The notes under the pieces are model-generated. The model searched no databases. It was not told where the DNA came from and saw only the letters and a list, made by a program, of their open reading frames with translations. Position numbers and translations under genes: made by a program. Shown piece by piece: positions 449-17,067 of a DNA stretch of 64,000 nt. Every line of letters begins with the position of its first letter. Within the stretch, counting starts at the first letter, position 1. The DNA is from Acidimicrobiia bacterium. Its GTDB lineage: Bacteria; Actinomycetota; Acidimicrobiia; IMCC26256; BP-133. Location: positions 211 through 64,210 of the forward strand of contig JBIOUX010000104.1 in the NCBI GenBank assembly GCA_044867425.1. Reading direction: 5' to 3'.

Positions 449-468
449 ATGAGTGGCGAAACACTCAT
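449..468. promoter_or_regulatory. Palindrome copy 1: ATGAGTG-GCGAAA-CACTCAT (putative operator)
   Basis: Perfect 7-bp inverted arms with a 6-nt spacer, upstream of the ParB-like regulator gene. The same arms recur at 17048-17067 and 33991-34010. Confidence 0.5.
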
Positions 469-584
469 GCGCTTCCCCCTCGTTGTGCGCCAGACTCGAT
501 CGTCGAGAGCCAGCCACACACGGACGCGGTGACGACCCCGCGTCTCTTCGGCGCGATGAACCGCAAGGGGAGGCCGACTTCGAT

Positions 585-1544
585 GTGTCGACCGACGGAC
601 CTCTCATGACTCCCATGGCAGGGCAGCCAGAGCCCCAGGAAATCCACTCTGTAGCGATCGACACGCTCAGGGAGGCCTTCACTCCCCGGCTCGGCCCTGG
701 CGATGTCGATCACATTCGCGCTCTGGCAGAGTGTTACGGCGATCTCCCACCCGTCGTTGTCCACCGCTCCACCATGACGGTGATCGACGGCGTGCATCGC
801 ATCTCCGCAGCCCGGTCACTCGGCCATTCGACCATCAAGGTGCGCTTCTTCGACGGGTCCGAAGCCGATGCGTATGTCGAAGCGGTGCGGGCCAACATCG
901 CCCACGGCAAGCCACTGGCCCTCTCGGAGCGACGCGAGGCAGCCAGGAACGTCCTTCGGCTGCATCCCGAATGGTCCGACCGGAGAGTGGCGGAGACGTG
1001 CGGACTCTCGCACAAGACGGTTGGTGCGGTACGGAAGCGATCGGCTGGAGAACTTCCCCACTTGAGCGTGCGTGTCGGTCGTGACGCCAGGACCCGGCCC
1101 ACCGACCCGGCCGCCCTCCGGCTTCAGGTCGCCGAGATGGCGCGGGCGACACCGACCGCGTCGCTGCGACGGCTGGCGGACCAGGGCGGCACATCGCAGT
1201 CGACCGTGCTCGACGTCCGCCGGCGGATGGAGCGCGGCGAGAGTCCCGTGCCGCCGCGGCTCTCGGGACCTGACGTTCGTGCCACGTCTTCCAACCGGCG
1301 TCACCGTTCGGAGCCAACCGCCCTGATGGCGGACAGCGCCTGCACCGCCACCCCGGGCAGCAGGGCTTTCGCCGAATGGTTCGAAACCCATCGGATCTCG
1401 GAAAAAGAGGCCCTCCGGCACCTGGACGACGTGCCGCTCAGCCGGGTGTACCTCGTCGCCGATGAGGCCCGTGGGCAGGCCGCCTTATGGGAGCGCGTGG
1501 CCACCGGCTTGGAAGCACGGGCGGCTGCGGCAAAACGACGATGA
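585..1544 (+). CDS. ParB/Srx-type N-domain plus HTH regulator (StrR-like architecture)
   Basis: Track ORF 453..1544. ParB-like segment: VAIDTLREAFTPRL...PPVVVHRSTMTVIDGVHRISAARSLG. HTH-like segment: RRVAETCGLSHKTVGAVRKR. The GTG at 453 lies inside the palindrome, so the start was moved to GTG 585 (GGGGAGG upstream). ATG 606 is an alternative start. Confidence 0.7.
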   Translation: MSTDGPLMTPMAGQPEPQEIHSVAIDTLREAFTPRLGPGDVDHIRALAECYGDLPPVVVHRSTMTVIDGVHRISAARSLGHSTIKVRFFDGSEADAYVEAVRANIAHGKPLALSERREAARNVLRLHPEWSDRRVAETCGLSHKTVGAVRKRSAGELPHLSVRVGRDARTRPTDPAALRLQVAEMARATPTASLRRLADQGGTSQSTVLDVRRRMERGESPVPPRLSGPDVRATSSNRRHRSEPTALMADSACTATPGSRAFAEWFETHRISEKEALRHLDDVPLSRVYLVADEARGQAALWERVATGLEARAAAAKRR

Positions 1545-1611
1545 CATGGATGGAGCCGTGGCCTCATCCGCCATTGAACCACCAGGATTGACCGTCCCAC
1601 CGATCTGAACT

Positions 1612-1701
1612 ATGAGTAGATTGAGCCGCCGGGCGATGCCTGCAAAGAGTGGGTTCCCATCCTCGACGGCTTGTGGGATTTTCTCACCGCTAGTTCCGTA
1701 A
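1612..1701 (+). CDS. smORF-1, 29 aa: MSRLSRRAMPAKSGFPSSTACGIFSPLVP (speculative)
   Basis: My translation of the 385-bp gap. ATG..TAA. No Shine-Dalgarno. Third-position G+C is 17/29, lower than host genes. Ser/Thr/Cys-containing C-terminal half. Confidence 0.2.
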   Translation: MSRLSRRAMPAKSGFPSSTACGIFSPLVP

Positions 1702-1722
1702 ATACTTCCTGGAGGTATTTCC

Positions 1723-1821
1723 GTGCCCTACGACAAGATCGGCATCCGAGCGAAGGTTGTCCGCCGGAGCCGCAAGCAAGGACAGGACAGCAAGAGCAAA
1801 GAGAAAAAGCCGTCGAAGTAG
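1723..1821 (+). CDS. smORF-2, 32 aa basic peptide: MPYDKIGIRAKVVRRSRKQGQDSKSKEKKPSK (candidate precursor or leader peptide)
   Basis: GTG 1723 lies 7 nt after GGAGG (1711-1715). Third-position G+C is 25/31, which is host-like. TAG at 1819-1821. A GC-rich hairpin follows. Too short for the supplied track. Confidence 0.45.
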   Translation: MPYDKIGIRAKVVRRSRKQGQDSKSKEKKPSK

Positions 1822-1842
1822 CCGGCTGGAACACGATGTGAG

Positions 1843-1929: not shown

Positions 1930-3129
1930 ATGAGACGGAACACCTGGGTCGAGCGGGAACTGGCAAACGGGGTGCGGCTCGCCATTGAAACCGATGGCGA
2001 CGGCTGTCCGAGTTATTGCGTTCGGTACGAGGTAGGGAGTAGCCACGAAGCTCCTCATGAGCACGGGCTCGCGCATCTGGTGGAACATCTTGCCTTCTGT
2101 ACTGGACGCGGGTCATTCGATGATCTCGCGGCTGAGGCCGGCGGCTTCTGCAACGCCGTGACCGACTTTGATTCCACGTCCTACTTCGGGACTGTTCCAT
2201 GTGGCGACCTGGCGGGGCTGCTCGTCCTGGAAGCGGCTCGCATGCGAGATCTCTTGGCCAGCCACGACGAATGGGCGCGGGAGGTCGAGGTGATCGCGGA
2301 CGAAGCCGAGATGTTGAGGAACGATCCCGAGCACCTCTGGATCGAGGATCTGGCCCGGATTCTGTTCGCCAAGAGTGATCCCTACCATCACGGAATTCTC
2401 GGACCGGTGGGCGAACTGCCCGACCTCGCCGAGGCACGTCATTTCCATCGCCGCCACTACACCCCCCTTCGGTGCGCGGTGGCCGTAGCCGGGGCGACCG
2501 AAGTGGAACCACTGCTCTGCTCGCTGGAAACGGGCTTGGGCCGTCTGCCCATGAGCGGCAGAGCAGCGGCGGTACGGCGGCCGACCTTGAGGAAAGCGCC
2601 GAGAACAGCTGACCTCGATGCGGTAGACGGAAGCGCTCGGGTCTATTTCGTTTGGCCCGCGCCGCCGTGGGGCACCCCGGGTTCCTGGGCCTTGACGATG
2701 TGGGGAAATCTTCTTGTCGTGGGCGCCGACGCCCACCTGGCCTCGGTCAGGGTCAGCGGCGCACCGCTCTCCGACTACGGATATCAGATCCTGCGCTGGC
2801 GGCGTGCGCCGCTCCTGATCGTCTGGGGTGAAGCTGACGATGAAGATGTGCTGCGGCTCGAGGATGCGCTCCACCGGGCGTTGCTCGAAGCCCCTTCACC
2901 CAGCGGCACTGACATCGAGCGCGCCCGGCATCTCGAAGCCATCGGCGGGGCTCGGGCCGTGGAGGACTCATGCGACCGGGCCGGCCTCAAGGCCGACGCC
3001 CTCGCCTACCAGTTGGCTGAGGGAGATGGTGTTCTTCTGATCGAGCGCGTCACCGATGAAATGGTCAGGGAGGCGGCGAGGGTCACCCGGGGACCCGTGT
3101 CCGCGGTTTTGCGGTACCACGGCCGGTGA
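1930..3129 (+). CDS. M16 family zinc peptidase, catalytic subunit
   Basis: Inverted zincin motif HxxEH in GLAHLVEHLAF. 399 aa. Confidence 0.85.
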   Translation: MRRNTWVERELANGVRLAIETDGDGCPSYCVRYEVGSSHEAPHEHGLAHLVEHLAFCTGRGSFDDLAAEAGGFCNAVTDFDSTSYFGTVPCGDLAGLLVLEAARMRDLLASHDEWAREVEVIADEAEMLRNDPEHLWIEDLARILFAKSDPYHHGILGPVGELPDLAEARHFHRRHYTPLRCAVAVAGATEVEPLLCSLETGLGRLPMSGRAAAVRRPTLRKAPRTADLDAVDGSARVYFVWPAPPWGTPGSWALTMWGNLLVVGADAHLASVRVSGAPLSDYGYQILRWRRAPLLIVWGEADDEDVLRLEDALHRALLEAPSPSGTDIERARHLEAIGGARAVEDSCDRAGLKADALAYQLAEGDGVLLIERVTDEMVREAARVTRGPVSAVLRYHGR

Positions 3130-4265
3130 CGCTTGGATTCCCCCTGGTGTCCACCCGGCACCATCGCCTCGGCGTGGTGTCGGGCCGCGCCCTGTACGAC
3201 GCCGGCGTCTGGCGGGAGGAGGTTCCCGGGGCCGCGCTGTTGCTGCTGTGCTGGCTTCGGGCCGCCTGCCGGGGCAGCCCGGCGCACGCTGCCACCGCCC
3301 CGCTGGCGGCGCTCGGCGTTCCCCACTTCTGGCACGCCAGCTGGGAGTTTCTCGAGTTGGAGTTCGAGTGCCTTGACGAGGACGTCCAGGCGGTCGTGGA
3401 ACGCTTACCGGTGGGAACGCGGTTCGGTTCCCAGTCTGATCCCACCTCGCTCCGGGACGCTGTCGACCGCGCCTTCAGGATGCACCACACCCAGATGAGA
3501 AGCGCCCTCGCCAGCGGGGCCAGCCACGCCGCGCAGGCCCTGGGCCGAGCATGCCTGGATCGCTACGGTCTCGTCGGAGCCGCGCCACCGGCCGGTGCCG
3601 ACGGCTCCGTGATCGTCGGGATGTGGGAACGCCTGGGGCCGCCCAAAGCCATCGTCCTGGCCGGCGACACGGATGTGGCCGAGGCACGGCCGGTTTGGCC
3701 TTCAGCCGCCGCACCGATTCCTCGCCCGCCCAGGCCTGTCGCCGCCCCCGTCTGCCGGGATGAGCGGGTATGCGTGACGGTGGCATTGGAGGCGGTCGAC
3801 TGGCCGATCGCGGCTACCACGGCCATGGTGCTCGAACGTGAGTTGGTGGGCCGGTTCCGCCAGCAGGACGGGCTTGCCTACGAGATCTCGTCGGAACCTC
3901 TCGGTCACTGCGTCCTCGGCCAGATGGTGGGGGGACGGAAACGGCGGGACGCTCTCGTCGTCCAGGCTCGTGCCGTCCTTCGTCATCTCCGCGAATTGTC
4001 ATCGCCGCTCTGGCAACAGGGCGCGCGCATGGCTTTGGCCCAAGCGCTCGCCGTCCGGCAGCGATCCGAAGTCGTTGTCGACCGGATGGTGGAGATCATG
4101 GCGTCCCAAAACTCGTTCCCCGGCCAGGAGATGGAGAGGGAGATCGACCGGTTGAGGTGGATGGCCGAGAACCCGGCGGATCTGTGGCGGCCCGCTCCTG
4201 CGCCTGGCGTTCTCGTCCTCACGCAGCCAGGCCGACCGGCGCAGCAGCACCTCGCCCGTGCTTGA
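3126..4265 (+). CDS. M16-like peptidase partner subunit (no HxxEH)
   Basis: GTGA overlap with the upstream M16 gene and a similar size. It lacks the zinc motif, which fits a non-catalytic partner of an M16B-type pair. The call rests on context and weak family resemblance. Confidence 0.6.
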   Translation: MTLGFPLVSTRHHRLGVVSGRALYDAGVWREEVPGAALLLLCWLRAACRGSPAHAATAPLAALGVPHFWHASWEFLELEFECLDEDVQAVVERLPVGTRFGSQSDPTSLRDAVDRAFRMHHTQMRSALASGASHAAQALGRACLDRYGLVGAAPPAGADGSVIVGMWERLGPPKAIVLAGDTDVAEARPVWPSAAAPIPRPPRPVAAPVCRDERVCVTVALEAVDWPIAATTAMVLERELVGRFRQQDGLAYEISSEPLGHCVLGQMVGGRKRRDALVVQARAVLRHLRELSSPLWQQGARMALAQALAVRQRSEVVVDRMVEIMASQNSFPGQEMEREIDRLRWMAENPADLWRPAPAPGVLVLTQPGRPAQQHLARA

Positions 4266-5523
4266 CGCCGGCCGGGCCCGCAGGTCTGGACCAGGCCTGT
4301 GGGCGGACCCCGACTTCCTCAAGTTCTGGACCGCCCAAACCGTGTCGAGAGTCGGCACCCAGGTCACGTTTCTCGCCCTGCCGCTCACTGCCGTCGTGCT
4401 CCTGGACGCGAGTCCTGCCCAGGTCGGTTGGCTGGCCACCGTGGAGTATCTCCCGTACTTCTTCAGCCTGTGGGCGGGTGTCATAGTGGATCGCCTGCGT
4501 CGGCGCCGTCTGGTGGTGGGCGCGGACATCGGCCTCAGTCTCGTCATGGGCGTCGTCCCCGTAGCGGCGGCTACCCACCACCTCACCTATCCGGCCTTGC
4601 TCGGGGTCGCCTTCGCGGTGGGGTGCCTCACCATGCTCATCGAGATCGCCCAGACGAGCTATCTCCCCACCGTGGTCCGTCGGGTGCACCTGCTCGAGGC
4701 GAACACCAAACTGGAGGTCGGCCGGGTCGCCGCCCAGGTGTCCGGATCGGGACTGGGCGGGCTGCTGATCCAGGCGCTGTCGGCGCCCATCGCCATCGCC
4801 GCCGACAGCGCGTCCTACCTGGTGGCCGGATGCCTCATGGCTCGGATTGCCAAGCCTGAGGCACCGCCACCACGGCAGAGGACCCGCGTCCTGGCGGAAG
4901 TGCAGGAAGGCCTGAGGATGGCCCTGGCCCTGCCGCTGCGGCCCCTGCTCTTCCTGGCCGCGCTGGACAACCTCGTCCTTTCGGCGCAGGGCGCGGTGTT
5001 CGTTCTCTACATGGCTCGGGATCTGAGTTTTCCGCCCGCGTGGATCGGCTTCGTCACGGCCGCGAGCAGTATCGGCGGCGCCCTTCTCGGTCTCGCTGGG
5101 CGGCGCTCCCGTCTCGGCCAGGACCTTCACCGTCGCGTGTCGGGCGCGCAGTCCATGCTCGTCGCCAGCATCGCGATCATGCCCATCGCCACGCTCGTCT
5201 CACCGGTGACTTCGCTCGCACTGATGATCGCCTCCGGTTTCCTCTACGGTGCCGCCACCGTCGTCCTCTTCGTCACCATCGTGACCGCACGACAAGCGCT
5301 GACTCCCGACGCGCTCCTCGGCCGGGTCAGTGCCGCGTGGCGCTTCCTGGCGGTGACGGCGACGCCCGCCGGTGCCTTTCTGGGCGGGACCCTGGGACAG
5401 GCACTGGGACTCCCGACGACGTTCTTCCTGTGCGCCACCGGCTTGTGCGTTCCCCTCGTCCTCATCGCCCGCGCTGAGAGCCGGGCCGGGCTTGCGCTAG
5501 CGGCGGGCCAGAAACACGGATGA
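4258..5523 (+). CDS. MFS transporter (EntS/MFS_3-like exporter)
   Basis: Multi-TM hydrophobic profile. N-terminus WADPDFLKFWTAQTVSRVGTQ and loop DRLRRRRL. Overlaps the upstream stop codon. Confidence 0.85.
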   Translation: MLDAGRARRSGPGLWADPDFLKFWTAQTVSRVGTQVTFLALPLTAVVLLDASPAQVGWLATVEYLPYFFSLWAGVIVDRLRRRRLVVGADIGLSLVMGVVPVAAATHHLTYPALLGVAFAVGCLTMLIEIAQTSYLPTVVRRVHLLEANTKLEVGRVAAQVSGSGLGGLLIQALSAPIAIAADSASYLVAGCLMARIAKPEAPPPRQRTRVLAEVQEGLRMALALPLRPLLFLAALDNLVLSAQGAVFVLYMARDLSFPPAWIGFVTAASSIGGALLGLAGRRSRLGQDLHRRVSGAQSMLVASIAIMPIATLVSPVTSLALMIASGFLYGAATVVLFVTIVTARQALTPDALLGRVSAAWRFLAVTATPAGAFLGGTLGQALGLPTTFFLCATGLCVPLVLIARAESRAGLALAAGQKHG

Positions 5524-6288
5524 CCGCTTGCTGGCCAGGAACGGGCCGTCGAAGTGGGGCAGTCGGGAGGCCAGCTCCGCGCCATCCATTCTCCTGGCCA
5601 GGTGGTCCCGCACCGCCGCCCAGTCGGCAAAGGTGACCTGTCCGTTGGCGTCGAGCCGGTCCACCTCCCGGAAATGGCGCTTCAGCCGGCGCCGGCCGTT
5701 CTCGCGGCTGAAGGCGATGATGATGGCGGGTGTCCCGAACAGCAGCTCCCACAGTTCACTGAGGTTGCGCTCACTGAGTGTCGCGGCGACAAGCAAGCCC
5801 CCGGGTCGCAGGACCCGAGCGGCCTCACGGATCCCGGCCGCGACGTTCTCGAGATAGTGCAACACCCAATTCGCAATAAGACAGTCGACGGTTCCTGAGG
5901 CGAAAGGCAACCGGTTGAGGTCGGCAATTACGGTCCCGAGACCCCGATCGGCTGCCATCTTTGCCATGCGCGGTGAGAGGTCCGCGGCCAGGACTTTTCC
6001 CTTGATTGCGGTTTGCAGCCGAGCGGCGAAGACCGCCGTACCGCAGCCGACGTCCACGATCGTGCCCGGATGAAACTGAGCGACTCTTTCGAACGCAAGC
6101 TCCAAGGCGTCAGTACCCGTTCCCGTGTCGTACAACGCCGACTGCGCCTCGTAGTCGCTCTCCTGTGCGAACGCCTCGAGCACACGTTGGCGATGGCTAA
6201 CAGTCTTCGCGGAATGATCACGGCGACGATCGCAACCTGATTGACCTATCACCGCACAACTATTAACGTCGCTTTCAGCGTACTTCAA
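5497..6288 (-). CDS. Class I SAM-dependent methyltransferase
   Basis: SAM motif I IVDVGCGTAVFAARL. Converges on the MFS gene with a 27-nt overlap. Start codon uncertain. Confidence 0.8.
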   Translation of the reverse strand: MKYAESDVNSCAVIGQSGCDRRRDHSAKTVSHRQRVLEAFAQESDYEAQSALYDTGTGTDALELAFERVAQFHPGTIVDVGCGTAVFAARLQTAIKGKVLAADLSPRMAKMAADRGLGTVIADLNRLPFASGTVDCLIANWVLHYLENVAAGIREAARVLRPGGLLVAATLSERNLSELWELLFGTPAIIIAFSRENGRRRLKRHFREVDRLDANGQVTFADWAAVRDHLARRMDGAELASRLPHFDGPFLASKRSSVFLARR

Positions 6289-6342
6289 GCCTGGCTGTCC
6301 AGAATTTCATCGCGCCGGGAGAGGCGCCGCGGAGGAGAGCCT

Positions 6343-7512
6343 ATGCCGGACAGCACGGAAGCTTTCGTCCCCTATGAGCATGAGCGTGTCGAGCGGGAAT
6401 CGACCAACTGGTGGGATCTGCTCCCCATCTCGATCAACGACACCTACGGCGACCCGTTCATCCCCGAACAGGTCGAGAATACGGTCATGAAGATCACCCG
6501 GCTCATGGACCATCGATTTCCCCTGGCAATCTTCACCAAGGCTGGGTATGACCGTGCCGTCCTACAAAAATTGCGGGCGATTGCTGCCAATGACCGTGTG
6601 GTGGTCTTCTACAGCCTCACCGGCTTGAACGAGGGCGGTATTTCTTTCGGAGAACGCTTGGCGATGATCGATGGGCTCCGTGACATCTGGGACAACGTCG
6701 TCGTCTTCACCCGTCCAATCATCCGGAACCGGAACGACGATCCTGCACTCCTTCAACGCCTCGTGGATGTTGCCGCCGCCGGAACCAAACTCCTCGTGAT
6801 GGGCGGCCTGCACGACCGCTACAAGAACAAGTTGTTGGAATTTGCTATCGAAGACCTGCTCACGGAAATGTGCGACCAACAAGGCGTGAAGTGCTTCCAC
6901 AAGACCGCCTGTTGCGCCGCTTATCTCCATCGCCGGTCCTGCTGGGTACACGACATGACTGGCCCTCACAACCTTGAGGTGGCGCGCCAGCTCGGCTATC
7001 GGTTCGCGATCATCGAGAATCGCGTGGTCCTGGACCGGGCCAGCACGGGTGACCTGAACTTCCTGCGCATGCTGGTACGGGCCGGCGTGTACGCCGCCCG
7101 TCTCATCAGCAACTACAACCTGCTTACGATCCCGAGCGGCGAGCAGAAATACGAAGCCACTTCGAGTTGGTACGCCTGGTCGGAGAACATCGATACCTGC
7201 CTCGATTGTGACTATTGCATCATCAAGCAGATTGAATATCTGAAGAGGATGCGGGTGAAGATCGGCACGCATCCGTCAGAAATGGTCGAGATCGTCCGCG
7301 CCCTGAATCCGGGAGTCGACTTTTCGACGTTCCAGATGACCAAGCTGCGCGAGGAACGGTCGGAGGCGCATACTTACGACGACGTCCGGGTGGTGAAACC
7401 GTGCTTCGTGAGGCGTTATCCACCCCCACCTCTTGCTGCCATCTCGGGGACGGCCCCGGACCGCGTGGTCGCGCCACTTCGGATCGCATGTACTCCGAGC
7501 TCCGCACGCTGA
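6343..7512 (+). CDS. Cys-rich protein with a radical-SAM/SplB-like barrel signature but no N-terminal CxxxCxxC; C-terminal CLDCDYC
   Basis: ATG 6343 follows GGAGGAG. ISINDTYGDPFIPEQ...LAIFTKAGYDRAVL...FTRPIIRNRNDDP resembles the post-cluster part of COG1533-type radical SAM barrels. Cys-rich tail: CDQQGVKCFHKTACCAAYLHRRSC and CLDCDYC. G+C is visibly lower than in neighbouring genes. Confidence 0.6.
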   Translation: MPDSTEAFVPYEHERVERESTNWWDLLPISINDTYGDPFIPEQVENTVMKITRLMDHRFPLAIFTKAGYDRAVLQKLRAIAANDRVVVFYSLTGLNEGGISFGERLAMIDGLRDIWDNVVVFTRPIIRNRNDDPALLQRLVDVAAAGTKLLVMGGLHDRYKNKLLEFAIEDLLTEMCDQQGVKCFHKTACCAAYLHRRSCWVHDMTGPHNLEVARQLGYRFAIIENRVVLDRASTGDLNFLRMLVRAGVYAARLISNYNLLTIPSGEQKYEATSSWYAWSENIDTCLDCDYCIIKQIEYLKRMRVKIGTHPSEMVEIVRALNPGVDFSTFQMTKLREERSEAHTYDDVRVVKPCFVRRYPPPPLAAISGTAPDRVVAPLRIACTPSSAR

Positions 7513-8231
7513 GCGCCGGCACGGCGTCCTTCTACTGCATGGTGGAACGGCCACGAAAGGGAGCGGCGGCTCCCGATGGGGTCTTCCTTCTGCACGGCCT
7601 GGGCGAGGACCGTAGCGGCCACAACTACCTGTGGTCGCAGATGGCCCGGCGTCTGGTGTCGGACGGTTCCACCGTCTACCGGTGCGACCTGGCCGGCATG
7701 GGGGACTCCCTACTGCCTCTCGACCTCGATCTCTGGGCCAGGCAGCTCGACGCCTTGGGAGGTCTTGGACAAGACCATGATCGCATCCACGTCGTGGCCC
7801 GGGGGGCGGCCCGCTGCATCGTGCCCGACAACTGGCGACGGGGGACTGTGGTGGCCCTGCGGCCGTGCGGCCCCCGGGATGTCGACACGGGGCTCGGAAG
7901 CGCACTGGGGCGGGCCGTCTGTGGCCAGGTGAGGCCCGTCCCGGGCGATGTCGGACCGGAGGAGAGCCGGTTCTGGACTGCGCTGGGAACCGAGGTGCGC
8001 GCCATCGGAGGCGCCAGTGTCAGTGCCTTTTTCCTCACTCAGGTCGCCTCCCGCACGACCCCGTGTCCTTCTTGCTGGACGGTCCTCGCCGCCGTTCACG
8101 ATGCCGATCGTGTCCCGGAGGAGGCCATCCTGCTCGACACCCCGAGCTCGCTGTTCCTGCTCGAGGCGGACCGCGGACAGGTCCTGGAGCTGGTCACCCG
8201 AGCGCTGGCCGGGACTGGTCACCGGCGTTGA
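7488..8231 (+). CDS. Alpha/beta-hydrolase-fold protein with a degenerate nucleophile elbow
   Basis: Track ORF 7401..8231. GVFLLHGLGEDRSGH and CDLAGMGDS are alpha/beta-fold-like. The elbow reads VVARGAA instead of GxSxG. Start is uncertain (ATG 7488 or 7539). Confidence 0.5.
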   Translation: MYSELRTLSAGTASFYCMVERPRKGAAAPDGVFLLHGLGEDRSGHNYLWSQMARRLVSDGSTVYRCDLAGMGDSLLPLDLDLWARQLDALGGLGQDHDRIHVVARGAARCIVPDNWRRGTVVALRPCGPRDVDTGLGSALGRAVCGQVRPVPGDVGPEESRFWTALGTEVRAIGGASVSAFFLTQVASRTTPCPSCWTVLAAVHDADRVPEEAILLDTPSSLFLLEADRGQVLELVTRALAGTGHRR

Positions 8232-8866: not shown

Positions 8867-10566
8867 TCAGTTTCGACGGCCCCAGTGGCGTCGGCAAGAC
8901 AGGCGTGGCGGCCGCGGTGGCATGCCGCCTCGGTCTCCCCTTCGTCAGTGTCGGCGACGTCTACCGCACCCTGGCCATCGCGGTGGCCGATGGGATGGCA
9001 CTCACGGCCGCGACCGAGCGGCTGGTCGTCCGACCGGCCGCACCCGGGCGGCCGCCGGTGGTCACCCTCGACGGCCGGGCCCTGGGCGCGCGGCTGTTGG
9101 TCGACGATGCCATCGAAGGTGCGGCGGCACGTCTCGCCCGACAGCCGGGCGTCTGGGAAGCAGTCAGCCGGATCGTCCGCTCCGCTACCGACGGACAGCA
9201 GGCCGTCGTCGAGGGAAGAACCTCGTACGAGCTGGCTGACGGCAACGGACTCCGGTTCTTCCTGTGGGCCGACCCAGCCGAGAGGGCGCGCCGGCTCCAT
9301 GCCGAGAAGGCACGACACGGTTGGCAGGGCAGCCTCGATGAGATCGGGCGAGGAACCAGGTGGCGTGACGGCGAGGACGCGCGCCGGGTCGACCACCCGT
9401 TGCGCCTGCGGTCCGGCATGATCTTCTGGGATTCGAGCGGGAGCCCGTCCCAAGAGGAGACCGTCGACGGTGTCTGCCGGCTGATCAGGCACCACCAGGG
9501 AACGTCACCGCTCGGGGCGTCGGTCGTCATTCCCGCCGGCCGGCGCCGACACCATGCCGTCCTGGCGCTCGAAGCCCTGTCCAGGCAAGATCTCGACCCC
9601 TCCCGGTACGAGGTCCTGGTGGTCCGGGATAGCGGGGCGGACAACCACATCTGCCTGCCGCCGGGGCTGAACGGGCATGTGCTCGAGACCCGCCGGCGGG
9701 GCGCGGCGGCGGCCCGGAACCTCGGCCTCGCACAGGTGCAGGGCGACGTCGTGATCTTCCTGGATGGCGACATGCTGGTCGGGCCTGACTTCCTGCGCCG
9801 CCACCTCGAGCTGCACGGCCGGCGTCATGACCTGGTGCTGTCCGGCGCCCGCCGCCACCTCCCGCCGGGACCCGAGGTACCCACCTCCGGCTCCCGCCGC
9901 GATTCGCGCGAGGCGATTCTCGACCGGTACTCGTACAACCTCGGCTGCCTGGCCAAGCCCTGGAGCCTCGCCTACAGCTGCAACCTCAGCCTGTGGACGA
10001 GACGCGCCCGGGACGCGGGTGGCTTCGACGAGCACTTCGTGACCTGGGGTCTCGAGGACCTCGAATTCGCCTACCGCTGTCATCAACAGGGAGCCCGCTT
10101 CGGGTACAGCCGGAGGGCGGGGGGGCACCATCTCTGGCACGACCGGTCGCTCACCCCGGAGCGATACAACGATTGGTCCACCAGCCTGCGGTGGTTCGTC
10201 GAACGCCATCCGACGGCCGACGTGAACGACCTCGGCCTGCTGGCGCCGGCATTCGACCCCGCCCGCCGGGGAGATTTTTTTGCCGCCTATGAACGCTTCA
10301 ATGGCGTCCGGCGAAGCCGTGGCCCTCAGCGCGTCATCGAGACCGGCGCGTTCGACGACGCGCTGGAGGTGGCTCAGCGGGCGGTGGCGGAGGACGACGG
10401 CGGGGACGTCATCGTCGTGGACGGCCTCGACGACGAAGAGACCTGCCTCCTCATGGAAGCGGCGACGCCGGGACGACACGTCCAGGCCTACCAACGCTCG
10501 GACTGGGAGCGGCTGACGGCCACGGAGCAGGCCCCCCCGGTGCTCCTCGAGGGCGCCCCCCGGTGA
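8863..10566 (+). CDS. Fusion protein: cytidylate kinase-like N-domain plus family-2 glycosyltransferase
   Basis: N-terminus ISFDGPSGVGKTGVAAAVACRLGLPFVSVGDVYR is Cmk-like. Middle part VVIPAGRRRHH...VLVVRDSGAD...NLGLAQVQGDVVIFLDGDMLV is GT2 with a DxD-type motif. GTGA overlap at 8863. Confidence 0.75.
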   Translation: MISFDGPSGVGKTGVAAAVACRLGLPFVSVGDVYRTLAIAVADGMALTAATERLVVRPAAPGRPPVVTLDGRALGARLLVDDAIEGAAARLARQPGVWEAVSRIVRSATDGQQAVVEGRTSYELADGNGLRFFLWADPAERARRLHAEKARHGWQGSLDEIGRGTRWRDGEDARRVDHPLRLRSGMIFWDSSGSPSQEETVDGVCRLIRHHQGTSPLGASVVIPAGRRRHHAVLALEALSRQDLDPSRYEVLVVRDSGADNHICLPPGLNGHVLETRRRGAAAARNLGLAQVQGDVVIFLDGDMLVGPDFLRRHLELHGRRHDLVLSGARRHLPPGPEVPTSGSRRDSREAILDRYSYNLGCLAKPWSLAYSCNLSLWTRRARDAGGFDEHFVTWGLEDLEFAYRCHQQGARFGYSRRAGGHHLWHDRSLTPERYNDWSTSLRWFVERHPTADVNDLGLLAPAFDPARRGDFFAAYERFNGVRRSRGPQRVIETGAFDDALEVAQRAVAEDDGGDVIVVDGLDDEETCLLMEAATPGRHVQAYQRSDWERLTATEQAPPVLLEGAPR

Positions 10567-11336
10567 CCACTCCGACGCCGGCGAACGATCCGGGGCGTCC
10601 TGTACGCCGCGAGGAACTCGTCGCCGTGGGCGACGGTCACGTCCTCACGGTGACCGACTTTCCCGCCCGTGAGCCAGCCGGCACCGTCGTCCTGTGTCAT
10701 GGCCTCACCGGAGATCGAGTTGGCCCCCAGCGGCTGCTCACCGTACTGGCGGAGGAGATCGCTTTGGGCGGCTTCCTCTGTCTGCGCTTCGATTTTCGCG
10801 GCTCGGGAGACTCCAGCGGGGACTTCTCGGGCTCGACCTTCACGTCGATGCGTGAGGATGTGGAGCTCGTCACCAGCTGGGGACGGGAGCGGTACGGGCG
10901 GCACCCCCTGGGGCTGGTCGGACTGTCGATCGGTGGGGTTCCGCTGGCGGTGGCCGCCCGCCGGTTCGACCACGTGGGCGCCGTCGTCCTGCTCTCGAGC
11001 GACGTGATCGAGGACGTCTACTTCCCCGATATCGGCCCCATGGTCGCCATCCGGGGCGGCGAGTTCCAGCTGCCGGCGAGCTTCTGGCGGGAACGGGAGC
11101 TTCTGCACCCGTTCAGCGACCTGCTGGCGACGGGTAGCCCGGTCAAGCTCTTCTACGGCGCCCAGGACGAGAAGCTGGCTCGAGAAGCACGCCGGTTCAG
11201 AGCGGCCGGATTCTCAGTCGAGCAGATCAGGGGCGTGGGGCACCTCTTCGAAAACATCGAGACCCGACACTATCTCGGCCGTCGTGTCGTCAGGTTCCTG
11301 CGCCGGCACCTGGTGCACCCGGCTCGGCGGCCATGA
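10563..11336 (+). CDS. Alpha/beta hydrolase
   Basis: VVLCHGLTGD, DFRGSGDS, and nucleophile elbow GLSIGG. GTGA overlap at 10563. Confidence 0.75.
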   Translation: MTTPTPANDPGRPVRREELVAVGDGHVLTVTDFPAREPAGTVVLCHGLTGDRVGPQRLLTVLAEEIALGGFLCLRFDFRGSGDSSGDFSGSTFTSMREDVELVTSWGRERYGRHPLGLVGLSIGGVPLAVAARRFDHVGAVVLLSSDVIEDVYFPDIGPMVAIRGGEFQLPASFWRERELLHPFSDLLATGSPVKLFYGAQDEKLAREARRFRAAGFSVEQIRGVGHLFENIETRHYLGRRVVRFLRRHLVHPARRP

Positions 11337-12502
11337 AGCGGACGAGCACCGAGTTCACACTCTGCCTGATCGCCAAGGACGAGGCCGAATACATCGACGA
11401 CTGCCTGCGCAGCCTGGCCGACGAGGCGTCGGCGATCGTCGTCGTCGACACAGGGTCCAGCGACGGAACCGTCGAGATCGCACGTCGGTACACCTCGCAC
11501 GTGTTCCTGCAACCGTTCGACGGCGACTTCAGCCGCGCTCGCAACCTCGCTCTCGGCTTCGTGCGCACGCCCTGGGTGGTCTTTCTCGATGCCGACGAGC
11601 GGTTCGACGGCAGGCAGGCAGCCAAGCTGCATCACCAGCTCATGGCGGTCCCCCCCGAGGTCATCGCCCTGCGGGTCATGCGCTACAACTTCTTCGCCAC
11701 GGGCGGCTGGTATTCAGGCAAGGAGATCAAGGTTTTCCGAAATCATCCCGCCCTCCGGTACCGGTGGGCCATCAACGAGAGCGTCCGTGACTCGGTGGAG
11801 GAGCTCGGAGGCGGTATCGGGGAGCTCCCGGTCGTGCTCAACCATTTCGGCCACTGTCGCCCGCGGCCGGTCCGTGACGCCAAAGCCCATCGGTACATGG
11901 CGTTGATCAGCGCCCGGCTCAAGGCCAATCCCGGTCACGGTCTCCTCGTCGGCTATCTGGCACTGATCCTGCGGACCCTGGGTCGGTTCGACGAGGCCAT
12001 GGTCCACGCCCGGCGAGCGATCTCGCTCGCCCCTGACGTCGCCCGGGTGCACCAGTTCCACGGGCACGTTCTGCGGTCGGTGGGAGCCGACCAGGAGGCG
12101 CGCGATGCCTACGCCCGCGCCGTCGACCTCGATCCCGACGACGCCGCCAACTGGAACATGCTGGGGGTGATGGATCTGACGCTCGGCCGCCGGTCCGACG
12201 CGGGCCACGACTTTGTCAATGCGCGGCGCGTCGACCCCATCGCCCTGCACGTCCTCGTCAATCAGGGTCTCTGCGAACAGGCGGCGGGACGATACGCAGC
12301 GGCGGCTCAGCTGTTCGAGGAGGTCGCCCGGGTCAACCCCGGCTTCCTGCACGATGAATGGCGGGGACGGGTGGAATGTGATCCGTTCCGCGAGTTCTAC
12401 TACGAGACCATCATGCAGTACGCCGGGCTCGGGTACCACCTCGGCTACTGCCGCTACCTGGCCGCCACGGCCACCGGGCCGAGCGTGGCCCTGAGGGCAT
12501 GA
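11333..12502 (+). CDS. GT2 glycosyltransferase with C-terminal TPR-like domain (SunS-type architecture)
   Basis: FTLCLIAKDEAEYIDDCL...VVVDTGSSDGTVEIA...DFSRARN...FLDADE, followed by helical repeats (LRTLGRFDEAMVHARRAISLAPD...). ATGA overlap at 11333. Confidence 0.75.
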   Translation: MKRTSTEFTLCLIAKDEAEYIDDCLRSLADEASAIVVVDTGSSDGTVEIARRYTSHVFLQPFDGDFSRARNLALGFVRTPWVVFLDADERFDGRQAAKLHHQLMAVPPEVIALRVMRYNFFATGGWYSGKEIKVFRNHPALRYRWAINESVRDSVEELGGGIGELPVVLNHFGHCRPRPVRDAKAHRYMALISARLKANPGHGLLVGYLALILRTLGRFDEAMVHARRAISLAPDVARVHQFHGHVLRSVGADQEARDAYARAVDLDPDDAANWNMLGVMDLTLGRRSDAGHDFVNARRVDPIALHVLVNQGLCEQAAGRYAAAAQLFEEVARVNPGFLHDEWRGRVECDPFREFYYETIMQYAGLGYHLGYCRYLAATATGPSVALRA

Positions 12503-13791
12503 GTCCCGATCGAGCGCGGGCCACGACCCTCGCCGCCGCATGGCGACGCCCGGGTCTCCTCTGCGACCTCATCGCCGATCTCGACCACTGGCCGCCGCCA
12601 CCTCGACCGCGGGCACCTCTGCCGGAATTCGACGACGCCGACTCGGAGAAGATCGCCCCCCACGTTCTGAGCCTCTCGAACGGGACGGCACGCGATCCGC
12701 GGCTCGATCGGCAGTGGGCGGCGATCACCAGGAAGCGCAAGGTGCTGGCCGGCGAGGCACTGGCCATTGCCGAAGCGGCCCGAGCTACGGCCAGCCGGAT
12801 CTTGTTCCTCCGAGGCTTCGCGATGGATCCGTACTACCCGGACGGGTACCTGCGACAGTTCAACGATCTCGACGTCGTAGCTGCCACCGAAGCAGACGGC
12901 GATCGGCTGCTGCGGCAGCTGCACCGGCGTGGCTACTTCCACTCCCGGCCCGCCGTCGCCATCCGTAGTCCCGGAGACCGCCGTCAGCCGCTCTGGATGC
13001 TGTTCTCCCTCAAGGCCCTTCACCCTGACCTTCCCGAACCCGTCTTCGTCGACCTGGTTCTCGGCGGGCCCGCCGCCACCTCAGTCTCCAGACTTCCGCT
13101 GCCGATCTCCCTCTTCGAGCATCCCGGCTGGGTCGCGGTCGACGGCGGTCGTCTGCCGGTACCCGACGCCCTGCACTGCCTGCTCGTCCTCATCACCGAG
13201 ATGTACGAACGCCGGCAGGTCACCGTCCGGGACCTTCTCGATTTCGATCGCGTCCTGGGCCGCATCAAGGCGCCGGAACAAGCCGCGACGGAGGTGGCCC
13301 GGCACCGGTTCGAGGCTCAGGTCGAACGGCTGGCGCAGGCAGCGACCCAGTTGGGAGCGCCGGAGTTGGCCCGGCGCCTGCGGCTGCTGGCACCACGTCA
13401 CAGCGGCGGTGCGCCGACCCGGTGGTTCGGCCCCCTCCTCCCCCACGCCATGAGGCACGCTTGGGCGGATTCACCTTCCACCGCCCTGCTGCGCCTTGCC
13501 GTGGCCACCGCCGGGCCCCTGCTGGACCGGGTCGAGGACCGGGTTCCGGGCGCCGCGCTCAACTTCTGGCGACATGTGCCACCCCGTCACGGTTATCGCC
13601 TCGGCCTTCCCATCTACCTCTTTCCACTCCTGACGACCGTGGAGCCCGCCGCCCCGGGAGAGGAACGGTTCCCAGACACGTACCGGCGGGAACGATTCAG
13701 CGCCTGCGGGCGCATGTTCCTCGCCCGGTGCCGGCCGGTGGTGGACGAGACCGAGCTCGGGCTGCTCGAGCCCGCCTTTGATGCGGGTTAG
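12499..13791 (+). CDS. Uncharacterised nucleotidyltransferase family protein (NTP_transf_5-like)
   Basis: LFLRGFAMDPYYPDGYLRQFNDLDVVAATEADGDRLLRQL matches the KG..Y....R...D.D.LV signature of this family. ATGA overlap at 12499. Confidence 0.6.
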   Translation: MSPDRARATTLAAAWRRPGLLCDLIADLDHWPPPPRPRAPLPEFDDADSEKIAPHVLSLSNGTARDPRLDRQWAAITRKRKVLAGEALAIAEAARATASRILFLRGFAMDPYYPDGYLRQFNDLDVVAATEADGDRLLRQLHRRGYFHSRPAVAIRSPGDRRQPLWMLFSLKALHPDLPEPVFVDLVLGGPAATSVSRLPLPISLFEHPGWVAVDGGRLPVPDALHCLLVLITEMYERRQVTVRDLLDFDRVLGRIKAPEQAATEVARHRFEAQVERLAQAATQLGAPELARRLRLLAPRHSGGAPTRWFGPLLPHAMRHAWADSPSTALLRLAVATAGPLLDRVEDRVPGAALNFWRHVPPRHGYRLGLPIYLFPLLTTVEPAAPGEERFPDTYRRERFSACGRMFLARCRPVVDETELGLLEPAFDAG

Positions 13792-14764
13792 GCCGCTCCA
13801 GCCGGGCGACGAGGGCGCCGTCGTCGAGATGGCCCTCGGGCAGCGCCTGGACAGGGTTCACCCACGTGAACAAGACCTGGCGGACGCCGCCTTCGTCCGG
13901 CGCCGCCTCCGCCGCCGGTTCGCTCCCGACGCGATCGGCAACGTCCAGAGCCTCGGCTGCTTCTCCGGCGGCCGCCTAGCGGCGTTCGTCGTCGAGGCAG
14001 ATGGGATTCATCCCCTGACCAGGGAGCGCGAACGGCACCTGGTGGACGCCGGTTGCGGGCCTGGCGATGCGGACGCCCTGGGTGAGCTCGTCGGGCGGGT
14101 CGTGTCAGCCGCCCGAACGGACGGGGTCGACGTCGTGCGGGCCGATGTGGGCGTCGGAGGCAAGCACGCTCACGACATGCTCCGGACGTTCACCAACAAG
14201 GGGTTCGTGGAGGAGTTGATGGTGGTGCGCAGGGCCGTCGGAACGGCGGGATCGACCGGAGGCGAGGTCATGCTCACACCGCCCGAACATCGACGCTACG
14301 CGCTCGACTGCCTCCACCTCGCGATCGCCAACGCACTGAAAGCGGCCGGGCGCCAGGTCGACGACCGGCTCATCAGGCGCTACGTGGGCCGCCGGTTCGG
14401 GAAGCTCACCACCGCCACCCAGTGGTCGTTCCTGGCCCTGGAAAGCGGCCACCCCCGGGCTCACGCGCTCGTGCAGTCGATGCGAGCCGACCTGCGACGC
14501 GCCCATGAGGCGTTCGTCGTCGACATCTTCGTGCCCCGCGTCTGGAGCGGCCGGGGCTGGTCGGCTCGGCTGCTCGGGCACATCGATCACTTCCTCCAGC
14601 AGAGAGGCATCGATCGGATGCAAGGTACTGTCTTGCAGATCAACGATGCTCACAGTGCCGACTTGCTGCGAACCCTGTCGGGCTCGGGATGGTGGGCCGA
14701 GATGCAGTCACTCGTCCTCACGCTGAGCGGACCGGGCCGTGACGGCCAGGGACGCCACAGGTGA
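13781..14764 (+). CDS. Tandem GNAT-like acetyltransferase
   Basis: Two acyl-CoA N-acyltransferase-like halves. The second carries VPRVWSGRGWSARLLGHIDHFL. Start is ATG 13781 or TTG 13778. Confidence 0.45.
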   Translation: MRVRPLQPGDEGAVVEMALGQRLDRVHPREQDLADAAFVRRRLRRRFAPDAIGNVQSLGCFSGGRLAAFVVEADGIHPLTRERERHLVDAGCGPGDADALGELVGRVVSAARTDGVDVVRADVGVGGKHAHDMLRTFTNKGFVEELMVVRRAVGTAGSTGGEVMLTPPEHRRYALDCLHLAIANALKAAGRQVDDRLIRRYVGRRFGKLTTATQWSFLALESGHPRAHALVQSMRADLRRAHEAFVVDIFVPRVWSGRGWSARLLGHIDHFLQQRGIDRMQGTVLQINDAHSADLLRTLSGSGWWAEMQSLVLTLSGPGRDGQGRHR

Positions 14765-15378
14765 CGAGACAACCTGGCCTCGAGGTCTACGAGGAGCACG
14801 GGGACTACCCGCCACTCGTGCGCGCCGCCGTCCGGTTGACGCGAGACCGCGGCTGCTCACAGGCCTGCCTCCCCGAGGTCGGCCGTCTGCTGCAGCTCAT
14901 GGCCGCCACCGTGACGACCGGGAACATCGCCGAGCTCGGCACCGCCTTCGGGGTGGGCACCGCCTGGTTGGCGAGCGGAATGAGCCCGAGCGTCCGGCTG
15001 GTCACGGTCGAGATCGAACCCGACCGGGCTGAGGCCGCGGCGGGGCTCTTCGCGCCGCTCGAGAACGTCGAGGTCCTCTGCGGTGACTGGACCCAGAGCC
15101 ACAAGGCGGCGCCGTACGCGCTGGTCTTCTCCGACGGCGGGCCGAAGAGGGAACCGGACGCCCCCGACCTGGTCGCACCTCTCCTCCAGCCGGGAGGCCT
15201 TGTCGTACTCGACGACTTCACCCCAGAGAGCGCCTGGACGGACGAGGAGCGTCAGCAGTGGTACCAGGACCCGACGCGGCTCATCTGGTCGGAGCATCCC
15301 GGCTATCTGTGCACCGAGGTGCAGCTCAGCCCCCGGTCCTCGGTACTGCTGGCCGTCCGCCGGCCCCGGTCGGGGTGA
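14761..15378 (+). CDS. Class I SAM-dependent O-methyltransferase (family 3-like)
   Basis: IAELGTAFGVGTAWLA is SAM motif I and GGLVVLDDF follows. GTGA overlap at 14761. Confidence 0.75.
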   Translation: MTRQPGLEVYEEHGDYPPLVRAAVRLTRDRGCSQACLPEVGRLLQLMAATVTTGNIAELGTAFGVGTAWLASGMSPSVRLVTVEIEPDRAEAAAGLFAPLENVEVLCGDWTQSHKAAPYALVFSDGGPKREPDAPDLVAPLLQPGGLVVLDDFTPESAWTDEERQQWYQDPTRLIWSEHPGYLCTEVQLSPRSSVLLAVRRPRSG

Positions 15379-16441
15379 CGACTGCGGAGGAAGGGTCTTC
15401 GCCGACGGCCTGGCGCAGCTGGGCCACCAGCTCCCCGGCCCGCTCCGCCTCACCAAGGTGGGGGAAACCGCCCAGGATGAAGAAGTCGACTCCGGCGTCC
15501 CGGTACTCCATGAGCCGCTCGACGACCTGTCCGGGGTGGCCGACGAGCGAGACGGCGACGCCGAATCGCACCGTTCCCACGCCGGCCCACAGGTTGGGGC
15601 CCACGGTGAGATCGGCCCGGCTGGTGGGCTGATGGTGGGCCAGGCGGCTGGGGGAGGACGACCGGCTCCGCTCCGCCACCAGCCGCACGATCTCGGGGTC
15701 GGACCTCGAGATGAGGGCGTCTGCGGCCGTCCACGCCTGCTCCTCGGTGTCCCGCACGATCACGTTCACCCGGAGGCCGATCTCGAGTCGCCTGCCTTCG
15801 GGTACGAGACGGCGCATGTGCTCGATCTCCTGGCGCACATCCTGGAGGGGGCCGCCGAAGACGAGGTAGGCGTCGGCATGGTCGGCCGCGATCTGTCGCG
15901 CCGGCTGGGAGCCACCGGAGAAGAACACGGGAATCCGGCTCTCGAGCTCGGGGTACAGCTCCGTCCCGGTGATGCGGTAGATGGAGCCGTCGTAGCTGGA
16001 CGGGATGTCCCCGTACCAGAGGTCCTCGACGATCGCCAACCACTCTCTCACCCGCTGGAACCGGGTCTCCGGATCGTCGAAGTTGCCGATCCAGGCGTCT
16101 TCGTCCCACCGGCCCGAGGTGACGTTGAGCTCGACCCGCCCGGGGAAAAGGCAGCTCAGGGTATGGGCCATCTTGGCCGCCTGCGCAGGGTGGTACTGAC
16201 TGGGCCGCACGGCGATGAGGGCATGGATCCGCTCGGTCCGGGCCAGCATGGCTGTCGCCGCCAGCCACGCCTCCAGCGAGTACTGGTAAAAGGCCGGCAC
16301 CAGGAGCCCGTCGAAGCCCGAGGCCTCCGCCGCTCGGCCGACCCGGGCCAGGTAGTCCGCGGTGGGCCAGACCCCTTCGGGCTCCGCCAACCCGAGGTAG
16401 GTCTCGTCGACACTGACCGGCAGCAACCAGTACAGCCTCAT
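15326..16441 (-). CDS. Luciferase-like (LLM) flavin-dependent monooxygenase
   Basis: Track ORF 15326..16525. The start was trimmed to MRLYWLLPVSVDETY (ATG 16441), which forms an ATGA overlap with the DUF402 stop. LLM-like ASGFDGLLVPAFY and LNVTSGRW. Confidence 0.75.
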   Translation of the reverse strand: MRLYWLLPVSVDETYLGLAEPEGVWPTADYLARVGRAAEASGFDGLLVPAFYQYSLEAWLAATAMLARTERIHALIAVRPSQYHPAQAAKMAHTLSCLFPGRVELNVTSGRWDEDAWIGNFDDPETRFQRVREWLAIVEDLWYGDIPSSYDGSIYRITGTELYPELESRIPVFFSGGSQPARQIAADHADAYLVFGGPLQDVRQEIEHMRRLVPEGRRLEIGLRVNVIVRDTEEQAWTAADALISRSDPEIVRLVAERSRSSSPSRLAHHQPTSRADLTVGPNLWAGVGTVRFGVAVSLVGHPGQVVERLMEYRDAGVDFFILGGFPHLGEAERAGELVAQLRQAVGEDPSSAVVTPTGAGGRPAVPRTGG

Positions 16442-16980
16442 CGGGTGGCCAGGACCTGTCCGTCCCCGACCTTCGGATAGCGGTGATCGGCAGAGAAGAA
16501 GGGGCAGATTTGCGGCGGGGGCCACGGCCCGTTGCGGTGGAGATAGGTGTCGACGAACGTCTCCGCCCGAGTCAGGACGTCACCTGCTTCTTCGATGGAG
16601 AATGCTCCGGACGACAGCCGCCGGGCGACATCATCCAGGTCGAGCATTCGGTACGTCGGCCCCATGCCTTCGACGATGACGTCAAGGGCCATGTCGCGCA
16701 CGTGGAGCAGGCCGGGCCGTCGCTCGGTGATCGTCACGACGTCGACGACCCATTCGTCTCGCCACTCGAAGGGTTCGAACACGAGCTGGATTCCGAGATC
16801 GACCAGCCAGAAGAAGCGACGTAACCCGTCCGGCCCCAGCCGGACGTCGTGCTCGTCACGGAACAGCACCGTCCCGCTGCGCCAAGCTGAACAGGGACGG
16901 AAGTCGCGATCACGCCACTGAACTCGGCACCGCTCCAGGGGGATCGTCGGCGAAGCCGCACCCCTCACCATCGGGTCCAT
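16438..16980 (-). CDS. DUF402 (FomD-like nucleotide-hydrolase fold) protein
   Basis: FFWLVDLGIQLVFEPFEWRDEWVVDVVTI...ALDVIVEGMGPTYRMLDLDD resembles DUF402. Translationally coupled to the downstream LLM gene. Confidence 0.55.
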   Translation of the reverse strand: MDPMVRGAASPTIPLERCRVQWRDRDFRPCSAWRSGTVLFRDEHDVRLGPDGLRRFFWLVDLGIQLVFEPFEWRDEWVVDVVTITERRPGLLHVRDMALDVIVEGMGPTYRMLDLDDVARRLSSGAFSIEEAGDVLTRAETFVDTYLHRNGPWPPPQICPFFSADHRYPKVGDGQVLATR

Positions 16981-17047
16981 ACCGCCCTCGCATGCGTCTC
17001 ACGGCGGGGTTTCGCCGACCAGTGTGGGGATCGAGCCAGTCCTCGTC

Positions 17048-17067
17048 ATGAGTGGTCGACCACTCAT
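17048..17067. promoter_or_regulatory. Palindrome copy 2: ATGAGTGGTCGACCACTCAT (perfect 20-bp palindrome)
   Basis: Lies 68 nt upstream of the DUF402 start (minus strand) and just downstream of the F420-LLM stop. Confidence 0.5.

Follow-up and report, generated by a model that had tools for sequence, protein, structure and literature searches.

GmaR is a flagellin O-GlcNAc transferase, and SunS and ThuS are peptide glycosyltransferases; in the glycocins (sublancin/thurandacin), a family 2 glycosyltransferase (GT2; GT-A, DxD) with a C-terminal helical/TPR-like region is encoded beside a small peptide gene and an exporter. Microcin C clusters bring together a very short precursor gene, a major facilitator superfamily (MFS) exporter, a GNAT-family protein, and nucleotide chemistry. 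In the lasso peptides paeninodin and pseudomycoidin, a kinase and an uncharacterised nucleotidyltransferase (NTase) are encoded together (PsmK and PsmN); we take PsmN to belong to PF14907, which would make it the only studied member of that orphan NTase family. PsmN is needed to add one or two hexoses to the phosphorylated serine of pseudomycoidin (PMC6993621), by a mechanism that is still unexplained (PMC6993621; PMC11912497). Here, we report a gene block near the start of a 64,000-nucleotide stretch of an Acidimicrobiia bacterium (GenBank assembly GCA_044867425.1, contig JBIOUX010000104.1, positions 211 to 64,210; hereafter, the window). On balance, we read the block as belonging to a rare and as yet undescribed family, spread horizontally, of biosynthetic clusters of the RiPP type (peptides made on the ribosome and modified after translation), and our best guess at its chemistry is phospho- or nucleotide-linked glycosylation of a peptide.

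The gene inventory was drawn from a scan of GC content at third codon positions (GC3) and from Pfam and NCBIfam profiles run on the window open reading frames (ORFs). Surroundings of the block were compared in 30 distinct loci (Actinobacteria, Firmicutes, and Rhizobium; several are truncated contigs), to which all locus counts refer unless another number is given, and the presence of each window protein per locus was scored by tblastn; a metagenome scan added few useful loci to the comparison set. Small ORFs (smORFs) were matched against the stop-to-stop segments of every foreign locus (about 16,000), with reciprocal ranking and composition-preserving shuffles. Coordinates are window positions on the plus strand unless marked otherwise. 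GC3 was 0.80 to 0.89 in the island and mostly 0.9 or higher in the remaining window.

The genes behave as a functional block that co-occurs in unrelated genomes, co-localised rather than scattered. Its signature gene (6343-7512) encodes a Cys-rich, radical S-adenosylmethionine (SAM)-like protein that has the motif NDTYGDPF and, C-terminally, CLDCDYC, and for which 81 relatives were found at 37 to 73% identity in Actinobacteria, Bacillus, Sutcliffiella, Paenibacillus, Rhizobium, and metagenomes. A co-localised core is kept in about 23 of the 30 loci and comprises this gene together with those for a degenerate alpha/beta-hydrolase-like protein without GxSxG (pseudo-hydrolase; 7488-8231; 21 loci), a Tmk-like P-loop kinase (Thymidylate_kin; 8228-8866; 24 loci), a Cmk-like kinase, here fused to a GT2 (Cytidylate_kin plus Glycos_transf_2; 8863-10566; 24 loci), an alpha/beta-hydrolase with a GLSIGG nucleophile elbow (Abhydrolase_1; 10563-11336; 23 loci), and a GT2-TPR glycosyltransferase (Glycos_transf_2 plus TPR; 11333-12502; 23 loci). 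The core is usually accompanied by a PF14907-type (NTP_transf_5) NTase (12499-13791) and its conserved partner, a GNAT-like protein (13778-14764; 17 loci). An NTase of some type was present in 20 loci, being PF14907, a divergent PF14907-like form (Rhizobium), or a Pol-beta-type enzyme (Bacillus cereus).

Other members of the block recur less often. These are an SsuD-like luciferase-like monooxygenase (LLM; Bac_luciferase; 15326-16441, minus strand; 15 loci), a DUF402-family protein (16438-16980, minus strand; 12 loci), a divergent class I SAM methyltransferase (Methyltransf_11; 5497-6288, minus strand, start probably at 6183; 12 loci), the MFS exporter (MFS_3/MFS_1; 4258-5523; 10 loci), a Methyltransf_24 methyltransferase with weak PCMT/FxLD-type matches (14761-15378; 9 loci), and a pair of M16 peptidases (5 loci). 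Related loci also carried His-phosphatase (8 loci), PEP-utilizers (7), NUDIX (4), SBP_bac_5 (3), or PqqD (1) genes, and ABC exporters recurred among them. We rejected the idea that NTP_transf_5 and PEP-utilizers are mutually exclusive alternatives, because Sutcliffiella has both. Nearly the whole window gene set was found in the Paenibacillus loci, in another order. Flanks varied by locus and included sulfate assimilation genes with an integrase, IS66, two-component systems, nonribosomal peptide synthetase (NRPS) genes, and a lanthipeptide cluster; no plasmid-borne copy was found. Across phyla, the signature protein is about 50 to 60% identical and the other core proteins are 24 to 67% identical; the conservation of the signature protein suggests a selectable, probably bioactive, product.

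Pfam and NCBIfam profiles backed most of the inventory given in the preliminary description of this DNA (the M16 pair, MFS, Methyltransf_11, Tmk-like, Cmk-GT2, Abhydrolase_1, GT2-TPR, NTase, Methyltransf_24, and LLM genes), and PF14907 matched the window NTase at 43.9 bits against a cutoff of 31.2. Four assignments were weakly supported in the window: the radical-SAM-like protein, the proposed tandem GNAT, for which a single GNAT match was obtained (E 0.009), DUF402 (17.6 bits versus a cutoff of 23.9), whose orthologues in relatives match PF04167 cleanly, and the StrR-like ParB regulator, treated below. All six 4-nt start/stop overlaps claimed between 7488 and 15378 were present when checked base by base, as were a GTGA at 3126 and the ATGA that couples DUF402 to the LLM. 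The block contains no NRPS, polyketide synthase, lasso, or lanthipeptide core enzyme, as had been stated. Regulator, GNAT-like protein, NTase, and DUF402 had no PDB sequence relatives.

The signature family is rare: at E≤1e-3, a search over 1.84 billion representatives yielded 189 clusters. It had been described as the product of a low-GC, Cys-rich gene with a radical-SAM-like fold, and the first two properties hold, the GC minimum of the region falling on this gene (0.585 at 6001-7000 versus about 0.69). On the radical SAM assignment, PF04055 scored 14.4 bits against a cutoff of 29.5, and the canonical N-terminal CxxxCxxC was found in none of 32 aligned members nor in distant relatives, all of which have NDTYGDPF in its place. 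Cys 177, 190, 200, 289, and 292 are invariant in the alignment and Cys 286 and 354 nearly so; the C-terminal CxxCxYC is conserved, and distant relatives keep both it and NDTYGDPF. An AlphaFold model had a pLDDT of 85, and neither Foldseek (TM ≤0.28) nor profile search returned a convincing PDB neighbour. Judged by these motifs, the protein may be a radical SAM enzyme with its cluster loop relocated to the C-terminal CxxCxYC. The low GC and the 50 to 60% identity to homologues in Bacillus and Paenibacillus would fit horizontal transfer or strong constraint.

A candidate substrate lies upstream of the M16 pair, where two small ORFs had been pointed out in a gap. smORF-2 (1723-1821) encodes a 32-amino-acid (aa) candidate precursor, VPYDKIGIRAKVVRRSRKQGQDSKSKEKKPSK; its GC by codon position (0.53/0.41/0.81) is the pattern of a real gene in this genome, and a GGAGG Shine-Dalgarno (SD) site stands 8 nt upstream. 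Its best match among the segments was a 31-aa, SD-preceded ORF, MSATHDKALVRPKIVRGGTKGSSASSTNNSK, in locus L026 (reciprocal rank 1; shuffle P = 0.0002), which in that locus has the M16 pair on one side and the radical-SAM-like gene on the other. smORF-2 is thus a credible precursor on its coding signature and homologue, but smORF-1 (1612-1701) was discarded, with codon GC of 0.45/0.69/0.59, no SD site, and no relatives. An ORF following the M16 pair in L028, MVHDFFPIIATVVRGKKRRPRGK, resembles smORF-2 at a level that is suggestive only (P about 0.1). Between smORF-2 and the first M16 gene, a GC-rich hairpin with a 15-bp stem (1843-1877; −39.5 kcal/mol, z −2.6) is possibly a partial terminator or attenuator.

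Short cationic ORFs analogous to smORF-2 occur at the cluster edge in four Firmicute lineages. In B. cereus (L001 8358-8593; QNGD03000014.1), two tandem 19-aa ORFs, MYKKPVLKKVQMPKA(A/G)NE(V/I), each with a perfect GGAGG SD site, are flanked on one side by a discrete PqqD and a 269-aa Pol-beta-type NTase and on the other by a CPBP (Rce1-like) protease and an MFS protein; this is a textbook RiPP layout, and it appears to be unannotated. A Paenibacillus smORF, MKVFNDAPLPWAKPIVRKPDVKPQPESKKK, is kept in three loci and gene-called in one (L042). In a metagenome-assembled genome of Bacillota, the candidate precursor SKFDAPVITKAIILGAKGDAPVIKKAVTVGTKGDAPVVKK carries three GDAPV(I/V)KK repeats (L007 5147-5272; L032 6978-7103), which hints at a multi-core peptide, as judged from the repeats. 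The Sutcliffiella smORF MSERQHVVRVTQKIKKITRR was not retained as a supporting relative, the evidence for it being positional only.

The GT2-TPR protein also points to a peptide, since the best solved relatives of its GT domain are GmaR (2e-17), SunS (8e-11), and ThuS; its TPR region is most like OGT-type TPRs. With the glycocins, the block shares this SunS/ThuS-related enzyme and the adjoining genes for a small peptide and an exporter. It differs from them in several ways: the SunS model TIGR04195 scored 38.5 bits against a cutoff of 350, the PDB SunS match covers the GT domain only, smORF-2 lacks Cys and a helix-loop-helix core, neither a thiol-disulfide oxidoreductase/thioredoxin-like protein nor a C39-ABC transporter was found in 1 to 19 kb, and the cluster holds six or more extra conserved enzymes not known from glycocin clusters. 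GmaR being the closest solved relative and a glycosyltransferase of flagellin, the system might instead glycosylate a secreted or surface protein, or a glycopolymer, and yield no secreted small natural product, and the GT2 of Cmk-GT2 does resemble exopolysaccharide (EPS)/teichoic-type GT2s (EpsD, TarS-like, PglI-like). We consider this very improbable. Wzx/Wzy, an ABC polysaccharide exporter, a priming phosphoglycosyl transferase, and chain-length regulators were all absent from 1 to 21 kb of the window and from the gene calls of 13 related loci, nor did the block or the related loci with gene calls read contain a flagellar or cell-wall gene. Found in their place are dedicated exporters, peptidase pairs, and smORFs, and genomic contexts vary as expected of a mobile biosynthetic gene cluster (BGC). 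The relatives, by their gene calls, thus do not sit in cell-wall or EPS loci.

Peptide-handling accessories argue in the same direction as the GT2-TPR protein. These comprise M16 pairs or the CPBP protease, PqqD, SBP_bac_5 and a PCMT-type methyltransferase inside some clusters, and, in L026, a radical SAM-SPASM enzyme with a weak SPASM signal. In the window, the first M16 peptidase (1930-3129) has the active-site motif HLVEH, and its partner (3126-4265), without HxxEH or a Pfam match, owes its assignment to its position and to L026, L028, and L042, where two such genes are paired in the same way. The likeness to PqqF/PqqG and AlbE/AlbF noted at the outset holds, in that the two genes are adjacent and translationally coupled with one HxxEH and one not, and a weak PqqF match was obtained (TIGR02110, 1e-10). 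Unlike those systems, the block has no PqqA-E and no AlbA, the PqqF score was 40.9 against a cutoff of 320, and the pair is accessory. In four other lineages, too, the cluster contains an M16 pair of which one subunit has HxxEH, as expected of a cluster member and not of a housekeeping pair.

Comparison with the remaining peptide systems gave partial likenesses. A kinase and an uncharacterised NTase are encoded together as in the PsmK/PsmN lasso peptides, but no lasso cyclase or B protease Pfam match was found in the block, and the kinases are Tmk- and Cmk-like, not HPrK-like. With microcin C, the block has in common the very short precursor gene, the MFS exporter, the GNAT-family protein, and nucleotide chemistry; it differs in having no MccB/ThiF-type adenylyltransferase match, in a smORF-2 that ends in Lys and not Asn, and in its two GT2s and radical-SAM-like enzyme. 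No NCBIfam model exceeded its threshold for any core protein, and full-text literature searches turned up no account of this gene set; the nearest remark is that Tmk and PF14907 flank phosphoenolpyruvate (PEP) mutase in one phosphonate family (PMC8942020). The combination therefore matches no described cluster class, as had been suspected, since no curated family, defence model, or paper covers it; the label "glycopeptide-type" found no support.

The kinases open the chief alternative, a nucleotide, nucleoside, or sugar-nucleotide natural product made independently of any peptide. The radical-SAM-like protein and the two nucleoside monophosphate (NMP) kinases would make a modified pyrimidine nucleotide, by viperin/CMPK2-like or fosfomycin-like CMP-conjugate logic; tailoring would fall to the GT2s, GNAT, and methyltransferases, dephosphorylation to DUF402, NUDIX, or His-phosphatase, and export to the MFS protein, smORF-2 being incidental or a regulatory leader peptide that acts with the hairpin directly 3' of it. 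Retained P-loop, DRY, and RD..D..R..PL-type motifs in the Tmk- and Cmk-like proteins speak for this, as do the recurrence of nucleotide hydrolases (DUF402, NUDIX, and His-phosphatase, at the counts above, and Metallophos in L028), the phosphonate family already mentioned, the hairpin just after smORF-2, and a nucleoside hydrolase gene preceded by the third palindrome described below. Prokaryotic viperins and viperin with CMPK2 likewise place a radical-SAM-fold gene beside Tmk-family and Cmk-family kinases, but here there is no canonical radical SAM motif and no PADLOC pVip match, glycosyltransferases, an NTase, peptidases, and an exporter are present, and the context is not a defence island; a PADLOC search for known anti-phage defence systems returned only weak generic P-loop matches for the Tmk-like protein. 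Also against a peptide-independent product are the kinship of GT2-TPR with protein and peptide glycosyltransferases, the peptide-directed accessories (PqqD, M16 pairs, CPBP protease, SBP_bac_5, and PCMT-type methyltransferase), the conservation of the smORF sequence between the window and L026, and the tandem duplication of the smORF in B. cereus. We regard this explanation as rather unlikely, though it is the main rival.

The start of the Tmk-like gene deserves a remark. The public gene call (equivalent to a start at 8288) would remove the P-loop, VEGIDGSGKST, which begins at codon 10 of the ORF starting with TTG at 8228; the TTG-8228 start is therefore the better model.

Several observations weigh against the RiPP-type reading. 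Only the pairing of smORF-2 with L026 was significant by shuffling, and the similarity to Firmicute smORFs failed both hidden Markov model (HMM) cross-validation and shuffles. A single smORF family spanning all loci was not supported: actinobacterial-type HMMs ranked Firmicute smORFs 800th to 10,000th, and the reverse search did likewise. Ordinary O- or S-glycosylation cannot be the universal step, as Ser, Thr, and Cys are all missing from the B. cereus peptide. No RRE or PqqD domain was found in window proteins at E≤10; a structure model of the NTase, in which a fused RRE was sought, was built from three usable sequences, reached a pLDDT of 38, and was not used. The nucleotide-binding motifs that the two kinases keep, as seen by eye, point to nucleotide over peptide substrates. 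Lastly, actinobacterial "type B" loci (L005, L010, L012, L015, and L017-19; about a third of loci) have the core with no such smORF, M16 pair, or MFS gene, which also favours the peptide-independent alternative; these smORF-less loci carry a His-phosphatase instead and, in two genera, an adjacent NRPS. Conserved at the N terminus of their radical-SAM-like protein is an extension of about 45 aa (…LSGEDxPF…F..DPMQ.DAGE…) that is absent from the window protein.

Two settings of the core among the actinobacterial relatives bear description. In Actinacidiphila and two Streptomyces spp., the core stands beside a conserved NRPS; in Spirillospora sp. CA-142024 (L030 11923-17943), it lies directly beside a class I lanthipeptide set made up of a 56-aa LanA with an FDLD leader, LanC, and LanB. 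The core could then be a scaffold-agnostic tailoring cassette that adds one moiety to whichever peptide its neighbours provide: in the window the product of a ribosomal smORF, in Actinacidiphila/Streptomyces that of an NRPS, and in Spirillospora a class I lanthipeptide. The adjacency to NRPS genes (L005/L011 and L012/L014) is conserved across genera, and there is that to lanA/lanB/lanC, but the former is confined to one lineage, where it could be inherited synteny in a BGC-rich region, the latter was seen once only, and most loci have no NRPS or lanthipeptide neighbour. A cassette of this kind seems to us improbable. The cluster version in L026/L027 has an extra canonical radical SAM enzyme, the one with the weak SPASM signal, adjoining DUF402 (L026 16371-17420).

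Returning to the RiPP-type cluster that we favour, a peptide substrate is argued for by the coding signature, GGAGG site, hairpin, and L026 homologue of smORF-2, by the GmaR/SunS/ThuS kinship of GT2-TPR, and by the accessories listed above. smORF-2 would be the substrate. Judging from sequence kinship, GT2-TPR may glycosylate the peptide and the GT2 domain of Cmk-GT2 extend the glycan. By analogy with the pseudomycoidin kinase and PsmN, the NTase and NMP-kinase-like enzymes could install or activate a phosphate- or nucleotide-linked group, after which the M16 pair would trim the product and the MFS protein export it. The radical-SAM-like enzyme would perform a step that is probably class-defining. 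DUF402, and NUDIX or His-phosphatase in relatives, might clear nucleotide by-products.

A bolder form of this proposal, which we offer tentatively and with less than even confidence, is a new RiPP class in which a very short Lys/Arg-rich ribosomal peptide carries a phosphate- or nucleotide-linked glycan. It would be made by a radical-SAM-like enzyme with its Fe-S motif moved to the C-terminal CxxCxYC, two NMP-kinase-like proteins, a PF14907 NTase, and a GmaR/SunS-type GT2-TPR, as a cassette that has moved between Actinobacteria, Firmicutes, and Proteobacteria; the product is possibly a peptide-nucleotide "Trojan horse." If true, this would be a new family of ribosomal peptide natural products with an unprecedented enzyme set: nucleotide-kinase-like proteins, an orphan NTase family, a peptide-type GT2-TPR, and a radical-SAM-like protein without the canonical cluster motif. 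The 15-kb operon set with its 32-aa peptide would offer a tractable system for the function of PF14907 and the identity of the NDTYGDPF/CxxCxYC family.

The preliminary description had the island bracketed by two copies of the palindrome ATGAGTG-N6-CACTCAT and counted a StrR-like ParB/HTH regulator among its genes. Both exact copies are present (449-468, ATGAGTGGCGAAACACTCAT, and 17048-17067), but a third stands 17 kb away at 33991-34010 (3 found versus 0.01 expected; 0 of 100 shuffles reached 3), and no degenerate copy occurs in the window at up to three mismatches. The motif was absent from all 31 related loci and was otherwise found only in a second copy of the same genome region. All three copies are intergenic and in promoter regions. 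Copy 1, in the divergent promoter that precedes the regulator gene, is a putative operator; the start codon of DUF402, which heads the DUF402-LLM operon, follows copy 2 after 68 bp; and copy 3 is flanked by the genes for an M61 peptidase (32025-33935, minus strand) and an inosine-uridine (IU) nucleoside hydrolase (34036 onwards). Given the third copy, the siting in promoters, and the absence from related loci, we reject borders of an island or mobile element; the palindromes look like host-specific, putative operator sites of a small regulon.

The helix-turn-helix (HTH) regulator (606-1544), maybe StrR-like, matched HTH_23 as its only Pfam family and shows a DGVHR motif by eye, but ParB had no Pfam support, and the gene, present in 0 of the 30 loci, is host-specific and not a member of the conserved set. 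This regulator, or another factor, may act through the ATGAGTG-N6-CACTCAT operator, the same operator that would also precede the nucleoside hydrolase/M61 peptidase pair. That the cluster, a peptidase, and a nucleoside hydrolase would share an operator hints at peptide-nucleoside metabolism. Palindrome 3 sits 26 bp upstream of the nucleoside hydrolase gene, which a frameshift or an assembly error divides between two frames (34036-34557 and 34379-34789); divergent from it is the gene for a secreted M61 glycyl aminopeptidase.

Beyond the block, the ORF at 17024-18130 proved spurious as a gene, the true gene being an F420-type LLM on the minus strand (17102-18481). Unrelated to the cluster, two large SARP/BTAD-family regulators (45902-48802, minus strand, and 54280-57480, plus strand), one with AAA_16, flank a PAS-GGDEF-EAL protein.

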